A stretch of DNA of 33,262 bases, from positions 1-33,262 of the forward strand of contig CAUTRH010000001.1 in the NCBI GenBank assembly GCA_963540905.1, written 5' to 3'. Below the pieces are notes generated by a model, which was not told where the DNA came from, did not search any database, and worked only from the letters and a program-made list of their open reading frames with translations. A program made the position numbers and the translations under genes. The DNA comes from an uncultured Acholeplasmataceae bacterium. GTDB taxonomy: Bacteria > Bacillota_I > Bacilli_A > Acholeplasmatales > Acholeplasmataceae. This document shows positions 1,251 through 5,442 of this stretch, piece after piece (the first letter of the stretch is position 1; each line of letters starts with the position of its first letter).

Positions 1251-1327
1251 CACTTTAAAATAAAAAATAAATCTAAGCAAATAATTTGTTTTAATTTTAA
1301 AATAGAATATACTTATAGTATCGGATC

Positions 1328-1360
1328 GGTCAAGAAGCGTACGGCGCCTTGACCATTTTT
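1328..1360 (+). terminator. GC-rich hairpin plus T-run (intrinsic terminator, attenuator or 3' end of a small RNA)
   Basis: GGTCAAG (1328-1334) pairs with CTTGACC (1348-1354). An inner GCG/CGC extension is present, followed by ATTTTT (1355-1360). The element is roughly 59% GC in an AT-rich spacer. It lies 78 nt after the ispG stop and 15 nt before the ancestral abi ATG (1375). Confidence 0.6.
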
Positions 1361-1432
1361 AATGGTAAAGATAAATGAAAGAGTTTAAAACTATAAGACA
1401 GTAATTAAATATTTTAAGAAAAAGAGGCTTGA

Positions 1433-3366: not shown

Positions 3367-4195
3367 ATGAATATCCTTTGACAACTTTGGTCTCTATTTT
3401 GGAAACCCCTCTAAAAACCTCGCCATCAACTTGTGCAGTTTTAGTGTTTTCGGTTTCTATTGTGATTTCTTTAGCTTTAAAAGTTTTAACGAATCTTTTA
3501 AAGACTGTGTGCCAGCCTAAATAAATAAACGGAAAAAGTAGCAATAAAAGTAATCTTGAACGAATTGTTACTAATATCAAATAAAGAAAATCTTCTCTTT
3601 TGGCCATTGGAGCAATTTTCATACCACCCCCAAAATAAGGGCCGTGCATCACGGAAGCCAAAAAACAGTTTTTGTATTCGCTAGCTACACCATCTACCGC
3701 TACTTTTACTGAAAACGGTTTATATCTAAAAAAAGTAGCAATGGTGACTTTAGCAAAAGTGCTTTTGATTTTATATACACGCATATTATCTAGACGTCTG
3801 CAAATTTCTCCGTCTATACCAATTCCCACACCATTTAAAAATAAGAAGGTTTCATCGCCTATCTTGGCTTGTCCAAAATACTTTAAATTGGCTTTAAAAT
3901 CAACTGCCTTGGTTTTGTCTTTAAAGCCACGAAGAAAATCATTTCCGGTTCCACCGCGCGCAACTAACACTGTGGCTTTAACCTGGGTTAGGTTAACTGA
4001 GTTTACAATTTTATTTAAAGTACCATCTCCACCAAATATCAAAATCACGTCTCTTTTGGAAAAAGACTTGAAATACTTTTCAATATCGGAAAGTGCGAGT
4101 ATTGAGTTTAAAGTAGCATTATCTTGATTTTCTAAATAAAACTTATGGGCTTTTTTGTAGTTTTTAGAAAGTGGGTTGTAAATAATTCTATACAT
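3353..4195 (-). CDS. Diacylglycerol/lipid kinase family protein (YegS/DagK-like)
   Basis: 280 aa with the IFGGDGTLN and GGTGNDF motifs of the DAGK catalytic domain. Overlaps the trpS start by 14 nt. Confidence 0.8.
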   Translation of the reverse strand: MYRIIYNPLSKNYKKAHKFYLENQDNATLNSILALSDIEKYFKSFSKRDVILIFGGDGTLNKIVNSVNLTQVKATVLVARGGTGNDFLRGFKDKTKAVDFKANLKYFGQAKIGDETFLFLNGVGIGIDGEICRRLDNMRVYKIKSTFAKVTIATFFRYKPFSVKVAVDGVASEYKNCFLASVMHGPYFGGGMKIAPMAKREDFLYLILVTIRSRLLLLLLFPFIYLGWHTVFKRFVKTFKAKEITIETENTKTAQVDGEVFRGVSKIETKVVKGYSYGQK

Positions 4196-4206
4196 TAAAA
4201 AGTAAG

Positions 4207-5442
4207 TTAAATTGCAAAAGCACTAAATTGTTTTTTGCCGCGTTTAATTACAAAATATTTTTTAAAAGCAGGTTTTAAGTCACTTAGTCTAAGTTCAAGG
4301 TCAGTGATTTTCTCTGAGTTTACAGAAATAGAGCCCGCTTGCATAAACTCACGAGCCTCGCGTTTAGATTTCGCTAAATTAAGTGAAACTAAAATATCTA
4401 AAATACTTGCGTCTTTTTCAAACTTTTGTTTACCAAATACTGAGTAAAGCATTTTATATTCGTTTTCGCCAAGTTCGGCAAGAGCTCCTTTAAATAAAGC
4501 ATCTGTAATTTTTTTAGCAGAATTAAGTGCTTCTTTGCCGTGTACAATCTCGCAAACAAACTCGGCCAGTTTGGTCTGTGCAAGTCTTTTTTCAGGCTCC
4601 TTCTCAACAGAAAGTGCGAGTTCTTCAATTTCTTTTACAGAAAGTAGGGTAAGTAGTTTTAAGTACTCAACTATCATTTTATCTTCAACATTTAAAAAGT
4701 ATTGATACAAGGTGTATGGTGAAGTTAGGTTTTCGTCTAACCAAAGCGCGCCACTTTCAGATTTACCAAACTTAGTACCGTCTGCTTTTAAAAGTAGTGG
4801 TGAAGAAAGTCCAAGTGCATCGTTTTCGCCTTCTAGTTTACGAATCAGTTCAAGGCCAGCAGTGATATTTCCCCATTGCTCAGAGCCACCGAACTGAATC
4901 TTGCATTCGTAGTTTTTATAAAGATAGTAAAAGTCAATAGACTGAAGTAATAGATACGAAAACTCGGTGTAAGAAATTCCGGTTTCCAGACGTCTTTTAA
5001 TTACATCTTTTTCAAGCATATAGTTAATGCCGAAGTTTTTGCCAAAATCTCTTAAAAATTCAATAATGGAAAGTTTAGACAGCCAGGTTGAGTTATTTAC
5101 AAAAATTACCTTGTCTGACTTTAAGATTTTTTTAACTTGTTTTTCAATTGAGTCAACATTCTTTTTAACTTCTTCATTTGAAAGAATACGACGTTCACCG
5201 TTGGGTTTAGGGTCGCCAATTGCTCCAGTTGTCCCACCAATTAAGCAAATTGGAATCAAGCCTCTTTCTTCAAGCAGTTTGATTCTAATAATTTGGACTA
5301 AATGACCGCAAGTTAAGGAACTTCCAGTTGGGTCAAATCCGATGTAGAACTTAGTACCTGGCACTAAGTTTTTTTCAGCAAGTTCTAAAGAAGAACAGTC
5401 TTTAACCATTCCCCTCCATTTAAGTTCTTCAAGTAAATTCAT
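4207..5442 (-). CDS. tyrS: Tyrosine--tRNA ligase
   Basis: 411 aa with GFDPTGSSLTCGHL (HIGH region), KFGKS (KMSKS equivalent) and a C-terminal S4-like domain. Confidence 0.93.
   Translation of the reverse strand: MNLLEELKWRGMVKDCSSLELAEKNLVPGTKFYIGFDPTGSSLTCGHLVQIIRIKLLEERGLIPICLIGGTTGAIGDPKPNGERRILSNEEVKKNVDSIEKQVKKILKSDKVIFVNNSTWLSKLSIIEFLRDFGKNFGINYMLEKDVIKRRLETGISYTEFSYLLLQSIDFYYLYKNYECKIQFGGSEQWGNITAGLELIRKLEGENDALGLSSPLLLKADGTKFGKSESGALWLDENLTSPYTLYQYFLNVEDKMIVEYLKLLTLLSVKEIEELALSVEKEPEKRLAQTKLAEFVCEIVHGKEALNSAKKITDALFKGALAELGENEYKMLYSVFGKQKFEKDASILDILVSLNLAKSKREAREFMQAGSISVNSEKITDLELRLSDLKPAFKKYFVIKRGKKQFSAFAI

Follow-up and report, generated by a model that had tools for sequence, protein, structure and literature searches.

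Upstream of a disrupted abi gene in an uncultured Acholeplasmataceae bacterium lies a hairpin of 27 nucleotides (nt) that recurs next to abi homologues in dozens of genomes. The DNA analysed here (the window) is a stretch of 33,262 nt, contig CAUTRH010000001.1 of assembly GCA_963540905.1, and the abi gene belongs to the AbiD/F type of HEPN toxins (Pfam Abi_2). We consider it likely, by analogy with related systems, that the hairpin forms part of an RNA of ~42 nt that ends most transcription before abi and that also binds and inhibits the HEPN dimer. Systems of this kind, in which an RNA antitoxin is encoded upstream of an AbiD/F HEPN toxin, are already known; the RNA motif itself is absent from Rfam 15.

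The element lies in the spacer between ispG and abi and has the following parts.

1286–1291, + strand: -35-like hexamer TTGTTT of the promoter for the non-coding RNA (ncRNA) and abi, read from the sequence.
1308–1313, + strand: -10 hexamer TATACT, after a 16-nt spacer from the -35-like hexamer.
1320–1327, + strand: predicted 5' leader of the small RNA, AUCGGAUC, with the start site placed at about 1319–1321 from the position of the -10 hexamer.
1328–1354, + strand: conserved hairpin GGTCAAG-AA-GCG-TACGG-CGC-CTTGACC (27 nt), read from the sequence and from folding.
1355–1360, + strand: U-tract ATTTTT (AUUUUU) adjoining the hairpin, taken to be an intrinsic terminator and to mark where the small RNA ends.
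1314–1369, + strand: match to covariance model R1, which was built from the abi-linked hairpin family (62.3 bits, E = 2.8e-12; this score is partly by construction, as the window sequence is within the training alignment of R1).

The stop codon of ispG ends at position 1250, 78 nt 5' of the hairpin; 15 nt past the U-tract comes the ATG (1375) with which the ancestral abi frame begins. The leader ATCGGATC follows the -10 box, and ATCGGATCGG spans 1321–1330. When the sequence was re-read, the coordinates of promoter, hairpin, U-tract, ispG stop and abi ATG were all as given in a preliminary description of the locus. The GC content of the spacer had been put at ~25% there and is 17%, compared with 63% in the hairpin. 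That description had also counted 7+3 base pairs (bp) in the hairpin: the outer stem does have 7 bp, and the inner stem has 3 bp or, if a U·G pair is allowed, 4. The two stems are separated by an AA bulge on the 5' side and closed by an ACG/UACGG loop; folding shows that the optional fourth pair of the inner stem (GCGU/GCGC) leaves an ACG triloop. An RNA from 1319 to 1362 (44 nt) folded with -14.1 kcal/mol, compared with -8.0±2.4 kcal/mol for shuffled sequences (z = -2.5; 4 of 200 shuffles equalled it). The family consensus pattern matched once in the 33-kb window against 0 matches expected, and the window holds this one copy only. A minus-strand promoter-like site reported by a simple promoter scan (1333–1306) was rejected as a by-product of the hairpin arm TTGACC; it is not conserved where this arm reads CCTGACC.

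The decisive case against a chance hairpin is its conservation in dozens of unrelated genomes. A unit of promoter, leader, hairpin and U-tract was found upstream of 43 unique loci coding for abi homologues, whose proteins are 37–100% identical. The unit reads promoter, AUARGAUUA-GGUCAGG-AA-GCR-UACGR-YGC-CCUGRCC-AUUUUUU, ribosome-binding site (RBS) and ATG, and the distance from hairpin start to abi ATG is 44–59 nt throughout. Loci L001, L002 and L006–L010, all from the same uncultured Acholeplasmataceae lineage, share ispG-abi-trpS synteny and an identical hairpin, and abi homologues that are 37–58% identical carry the same promoter-hairpin unit in unrelated genomic contexts and phyla. The carriers include Acholeplasmataceae, Lachnospiraceae, Streptococcus mitis/oralis/infantis, Gemella, Kandleria, Veillonella, Lancefieldella/Atopobium, Erysipelotrichaceae, Amygdalobacter and Streptococcus phage Javan119. 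The reverse test was an exact-pattern scan of metagenome contigs, which yielded at least 120 loci; the counts given here are among the matches listed. An abi homologue started within 200 nt downstream on the same strand in 93 of the 115 informative matches. Five of 120 ran off the contig edge, and 22 had no abi homologue within 200 nt, several of them representing decayed or interrupted abi genes; in one of these, an inserted gene parts abi from the hairpin.

The promoter is conserved together with the hairpin. A perfect TTGACA-17-TATAAT is present in 22 of the 43 unique loci; where homologous loci have TTGACA, members of the Acholeplasmataceae lineage show TTGTTT or TTGTCT, followed by a spacer of 16 nt. 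The gap between -10 box and hairpin measures 15 nt in 35 of 43 loci; in the Acholeplasmataceae lineage the leader is shorter by 1 nt and the gap is 14 nt. This geometry would place the transcription start ~8–9 nt before the hairpin and predicts an RNA of ~42–45 nt, in agreement with the ~40–45 nt estimated in the preliminary description. Only 17–32 nt separate the hairpin end from the ATG, and they are taken up by the U-tract and the RBS. There is no room for a separate abi promoter, and any transcript of abi would therefore have to pass through the hairpin.

Since ispG lies directly upstream in the window, the hairpin might simply be the intrinsic terminator of the rpmG-ispG operon, the trivial alternative that the preliminary description had already raised. 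The gene is co-oriented with the hairpin, its stop codon is 78 nt away and no other terminator-like site lies in between. Yet the identical element stands next to abi in dozens of genomes where the upstream genes are unrelated, and in the window the hairpin's own promoter sits between ispG and the hairpin. The arrangement that the preliminary description had named as speaking against its proposal, a hairpin kept at ispG where abi is lacking, was sought at the ispG loci of other Acholeplasmatales-like genera (L213–L215, 65–67% identical), which gave no match to R1; the ispG of L214 has a different terminator of its own. Locus L216, with an ispG 88% identical to that of the window, has lost most of abi and retains (4045–4391) the promoter, a diverged hairpin (32.9 bits with R1) and a remnant of the abi C-terminus, so that the hairpin persists together with what is left of abi. 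We regard an ispG terminator as a highly improbable account of the hairpin and, as the origin of the element, as refuted by this comparison of loci. The comparison indicates that the element came with the abi cassette and is not an ispG feature, because it is linked to abi in unrelated contexts, is absent at the ispG of other genera and accompanies an abi remnant in L216. It may incidentally stop ispG transcripts in the window's genome.

We examined the structure in a gap-free alignment of 26 non-redundant sequences (A3). Standard base pairs filled 97.7% of the paired cells, compared with 26–46% in controls in which the pairing was slid along the alignment, and RNAalifold independently predicted the same fold. 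Three pairs showed double-sided changes (GC<->AU, GC<->UG and GC<->AU/CG), and the covariation score was 0.294, compared with 0.161±0.015 after shuffling (reached in 0 of 500 shuffles). U·G pairs occur at two positions, in 14 of 26 and 16 of 26 sequences, and would be C·A mismatches if read on the other strand; the structure is therefore that of a + strand RNA. Leader (AUARGAUUA), AA bulge, loop and U-tract hardly vary in the family, whose proteins share ~50% identity. Alignment positions T44–T47 are invariant, and the homologues have 5–10 U residues there. The leader of the window is homologous to that of the family, and conservation in A3 begins about at the expected transcription start. Constraint on leader, bulge and loop far exceeds what a terminator needs, which suggests sequence-specific recognition. 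Taken together with the conservation upstream of abi homologues in unrelated contexts, the covarying pairs support the proposal of the preliminary description that the hairpin is an ncRNA or attenuator.

An inverted repeat this close to a promoter could also act as DNA, as a repressor operator or an autoregulatory site. The near-palindrome does lie immediately 3' of the promoter, and ToxN-type systems are reported to be autoregulated (PMC13064643). However, the repeat is asymmetric, with the AA bulge on one arm only, and the frequent U·G pairs (14/26 and 16/26) are mismatches in DNA. Moreover, the formation of an RNA 3' end explains the invariant U-tract, and Abi_2 has no DNA-binding domain according to Pfam. 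A role as DNA is hardly credible on these grounds.

We propose that a mobile AbiD/F-type toxin cassette (Abi_2, HEPN RNase) was inserted between ispG and trpS, and that the hairpin is its cis-encoded RNA core. A sigma-70-type promoter (1286–1313) would start transcription at ~1320, and the transcript would consist of an 8-nt leader, the 27-nt hairpin and the U-tract. The majority of transcripts would stop at the U-tract, giving an RNA of ~42 nt, and read-through transcripts alone would reach the RBS and ATG of abi 15 nt further on, which would make the element an attenuator in cis. The terminated RNA would bind the HEPN dimer and block its RNase site, and would thereby act as a type III antitoxin in trans. 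This last role is proposed because of the analogy with RCd22/AbiFCd and AbiFr/PbAbiF.

The preliminary description had pointed to reports of Abi_2 proteins paired with an upstream structured ncRNA, and such reports exist for RCd22/AbiF (PMC12373285) and for AbiFr/PbAbiF (PMC12737573, PMC13064643). In Clostridioides difficile, RCd22 upstream of abiFCd counteracts the toxin in two ways: in cis it causes transcription to terminate prematurely, and in trans it binds the toxin (PMC12373285). Like the locus in the window, the RCd22/AbiFCd system of prophage phi027 and phage phiC2 combines an Abi_2/HEPN toxin with a structured ncRNA directly upstream on the same strand (PMC12373285). RCd22 has its own SigA-type promoter; its transcription mostly ends before the toxin gene, and the toxin mRNA arises by read-through (PMC12373285). 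The hairpins are also alike: each has an outer stem rich in GC, an A bulge on the 5' side and a short inner stem that starts with (A)GC. In contrast, RCd22 is ~100–130 nt long, has two RF03085 hairpins and a separate terminator, and starts 168 nt from the ATG, while the window has a single 27-nt hairpin fused to the U-tract, a predicted RNA of ~42 nt and ~55 nt between start site and ATG. The 6-nt 3' internal loop of RCd22 (CAAAUC) is absent from the window hairpin, which has a triloop instead of an ~11-nt loop.

PbAbiF binds one AbiFr RNA per monomer, and the RNA blocks the HEPN RNase site (PMC12737573, PMC13064643). The protein in this complex (PDB 8VZ6; Zilberzwige-Tal et al., Cell 2025, as summarized in PMC12737573 and PMC13064643) is a distant homologue of the Abi proteins of the window family. 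The inhibitory nucleotides of AbiFr are reported to lie in a single-stranded bulge; the window RNA has as unpaired internal nucleotides just the AA bulge and the triloop.

A short RNA followed by a rarely read toxin gene is also found in Lactococcus lactis AbiD1, where the sole visible transcript from the abi promoter is 50 bases long and ends at a terminator just 5' of the gene (PMC2661086). The AbiD1 leader resembles the window in its succession of promoter, short RNA, terminator and poly-U directly before the RBS, with rare read-through mRNA (PMC2661086); for AbiD1 (AF116286) this succession was established by experiment, and the likeness noted here is one of architecture. AbiD1 was not among the hits listed by tblastn against plasmids. 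The RNA upstream of AbiD1 was deemed a likely antitoxin only later (PMC13064643).

A simpler function would be one in cis only, with hairpin and U-tract placed at the 5' edge of the cassette as a strong attenuator or insulator. The element would then keep toxin transcription low, and the terminated RNA would have no role in trans. A hairpin with an invariant U-tract resembles an intrinsic terminator, and abi would be expressed by read-through only. The AbiD1 terminator has been described as limiting full-length mRNA (PMC2661086), and RCd22 acts in cis, too (PMC12373285). On the other hand, a stable stem followed by U residues would suffice for a terminator, yet leader, bulge, loop and stem are near-invariant across phyla while the proteins are ~50% identical. 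With a promoter of consensus strength at a distance of 15 nt, the short RNA should be plentiful, and both relatives that have been tested possess an RNA that works in trans as well, through binding to the protein (PMC12373285; PMC13064643). We regard a function in cis alone as unlikely but would not dismiss it.

Like AbiD/F HEPN systems with RNA antitoxins, the family combines, as judged from sequence, Abi_2 and the R-phi-xxx-H motif with a conserved upstream structured RNA that has a predicted promoter. Type III systems such as ToxIN, AbiQ, CptIN and TenpIN share with the window the order of RNA gene, terminator and toxin gene; their terminator sets the RNA-to-toxin ratio, as the one in the window would. 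Their antitoxins are tandem repeats processed by an endoribonuclease of the ToxN fold, whereas the window has a single unit and a HEPN toxin; no relevant tandem or direct repeats of the ToxI kind were found in the window.

The combination of attenuation in cis and inhibition in trans has several points against it. The analogy on which the antitoxin role rests is drawn from relatives that are ~27% identical (phiC2 AbiF) or recognizable at E = 8e-12 (PbAbiF). The 3' internal loop of RF03085 presumably corresponds to the single-stranded inhibitory bulge of PbAbiFr; the window hairpin lacks this loop, and its contacts with the toxin, if any, must therefore differ. About 19% of the listed motif matches have no intact abi nearby. 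The number of covarying pairs alone was not significant (reached in 168 of 500 shuffles); covariation is limited to three double-sided pairs because the hairpin sequence is so conserved. A simple promoter and terminator scan of the window listed neither the promoter nor the hairpin: the promoter was not listed because its -35-like hexamer TTGTTT agrees with the consensus at 3 of 6 positions only, and the terminator scan probably overlooked the hairpin owing to its AA bulge. Finally, the toxin system of the window itself is unlikely to operate, abi being disrupted.

We compared the element with RF03085, the abiF RNA motif of Weinberg et al. 2017. With this model (gathering threshold 37 bits), neither the window nor any of 20 homologous loci gave a match at gathering score, and at E <= 10 there was none on 1150–1550 of the window or on 2880–3010 of L012. 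The positive control phiC2 scored 37.6 bits (consensus CCCGCC-A-AGC-loop-GCU-CAAAUC-GGCGGG). RF03085 has a 6-bp outer stem, a 1-nt 5' bulge, a 3-bp inner stem, a loop of ~11 nt and a 6-nt 3' internal loop. In contrast, the outer stem of the window element has 7 bp and its inner stem 3–4 bp, the bulge (AA) measures 2 nt and the loop 3–5 nt, and a 3' internal loop is lacking; the element is one unit in which the U-tract is fused to the hairpin and takes the place of a separate terminator. What the two have in common, besides the stem and bulge features noted for RCd22, is their place 5' of an abiF/Abi_2 gene that has the same orientation. Membership of the window RNA in RF03085 was thus rejected on both score and architecture. 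Proteins of the window family and AbiF of phiC2 are ~27% identical, and the RF03085 and R1 models each found no match in the other family. The whole-window Rfam scan gave no matches at gathering score, and in the 20 homologous loci such matches were to tRNA and tmRNA only. Permissive Rfam matches on the element (CRISPR-DR54, NrrF, RsaH and others) were rejected as chance.

As judged from these comparisons, the RNA class appears clearly distinct from RF03085, and it may already have been described in the 2025 Cell paper on AbiF. The locus would point to a second, very compact RNA class for AbiD/F toxins, for which RF03085 is so far the only curated family. AbiD/F HEPN toxins with upstream RNA antitoxins were characterized only in 2025 and have been proposed as ancestors of Cas13, and a second class would broaden the picture of how RNA restrains HEPN toxins. 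The class is linked to a large clade of Abi_2 proteins, abundant in bacteria of the human mouth and gut as well as in prophages of streptococci. A minimal RNA of ~42 nt would lend itself to structural and engineering work, and the covariance model is ready for annotation. For the window's genome the meaning is modest, that of a decaying insertion downstream of ispG.

Distant Abi_2 clades (29–35% identity) have a conserved promoter-proximal hairpin RNA with U-tract of their own, e.g. AGAUCGUACUCCGGUGUCC...GGGGUCUUUUUU. Such other hairpins were seen in L064–L066, L069, L067–L085, L088 (about 480–590), satellite phage Javan324 and phiC2, the leader in Collinsella being a two-hairpin one. R1 had no match in phiC2, Javan324, Mycoplasma (L058, L059), Collinsella L067–L085, L064–L066 and L069; in the Mycoplasma loci L058 and L059, no upstream hairpin was seen. 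That the distant-clade hairpins are matched by neither RF03085 nor R1 suggests several uncatalogued Abi-linked RNA classes.

Hairpins of the window family without abi within 200 nt were found in L091, L219, L226, L109, L181, L195, L199, L096, L143, L097, L147, L144, L220 and L221. Some of these orphans lie just past a streptococcal phage lysin-like gene, and others between an HNH gene and a gene for a protein of 1300–1550 amino acids (aa) with RNA-polymerase Rpb1/Rpb2 fragments. Further orphans precede a KilA-N gene or a DUF188 gene, or stand immediately 5' of a tRNA gene. In viral contigs, four of the eight exact-pattern matches were orphans. Such copies may have been left behind by deleted cassettes, or they may be decoy antitoxins of phages. 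A bolder reading would see in the family an uncatalogued minimal antitoxin class of ~42–45 nt, in which the hairpin is antitoxin and terminator at once and abi-less phage copies are decoys that disarm host AbiD/F systems. The pseudo-ToxI of phage PhiTE is an analogue for the proposed decoy role of abi-less hairpins in phage-like contigs, and such a class, if real, would be widespread in oral and gut Firmicutes, Actinobacteria and their prophages. We view this combined proposal with considerable doubt.

The abi gene of the window and its neighbours have the following features.

76–210: rpmG, upstream of ispG.
207–1250, + strand: ispG (GcpE), the upstream housekeeping gene (Pfam GcpE, E = 5.5e-135).
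1375–2329, + strand: abi (Pfam Abi_2, PADLOC AbiD, HEPN), ancestral open reading frame (ORF) of 317 aa, disrupted.
1402–1404, + strand: TAA stop in place of codon 10 in the ancestral abi frame, where five intact relatives have CAA (alignment A4, translation).
1455–1462, + strand: A-run with one extra A relative to five intact relatives, resulting in a +1 frameshift (alignment A4, translations).
2042–2059, + strand: HEPN catalytic motif RNMCAH (R-phi-xxx-H), counterpart of RNQCAH in AbiFCd (PMC12373285).
2333–2367: 16-bp palindrome resembling a terminator, located where abi and trpS converge and bounding the cassette on its 3' side (terminator scan).

The longest intact abi ORF extends from a TTG start at 1433 to 2329 (298 aa), and the homologues are 317 aa long. 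Its product matched Pfam Abi_2 (E = 3e-36) and PADLOC AbiD (E = 1e-41), and NCBIfam gave it no name; an intact relative (P0001) aligned with PDB 8VZ6 (PbAbiF) over residues 4–236 (E = 8e-12). Nonsense codon and frameshift cut the conserved N-terminal 19 residues off the Abi protein of the window. In addition, the -10 box carries an A->C change at position 1312 (TATACT), where the closest relatives L001, L002 and L007–L010 have TATAAT, and by comparison with these this change weakens the box. Because the toxin gene is broken and the -10 box weakened, the local copy of the cassette is probably a decaying relic, unless the lesions are assembly errors. The hairpin may now serve mainly to end rpmG-ispG transcription. 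In P0004, from the metagenome-assembled genome of L010, the Abi product is truncated to 217 aa. The cassette thus appears to have decayed repeatedly in this Acholeplasmataceae lineage, in the window, in P0004 and in L216.

A second inverted repeat is formed in the window by 1348–1357 (CTTGACCATT) and 1361–1370 (AATGGTAAAG), which are complementary at 9 of 10 positions and separated by a 3-nt loop. It overlaps the 3' arm of the hairpin and the stretch just 5' of the abi ATG, and as an alternative fold it could mask the translation start in read-through mRNA, comparable with the stem masking RBS and poly-U that has been described for AbiD1. As an RBS-masking or antiterminator fold it was set aside, being lineage-specific: it is weakened in L009 and has 4 bp only elsewhere, with just CCAU/AUGG remaining in some other taxa.

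Three further loci are of note. In the streptococcal locus L169, the hairpin is followed, at ~224–565 nt, by an inserted gene for a product of ~113 aa and only then by an intact abi, so that the toxin gene is parted from its RNA and promoter. The inserted product begins MCKYHIVFTPKYRRKV and may be similar to TnpA-like transposases of the IS200/IS605 type. On the minus strand of L159, R1 matched 1107–1162 and 1163–1218, two tandem units that each consist of a -10 box and a hairpin. The second unit is diverged (outer stem GGGCGG/CCGUCC), still folds and scores 45 bits with R1, and no abi follows it. In phage Javan119, a sub-threshold match to the Rfam family Spy779816, a small RNA of Streptococcus pyogenes (L087, 2154–2252, minus strand; 44.5 bits vs gathering score 67), lies between abi and the integrase gene.

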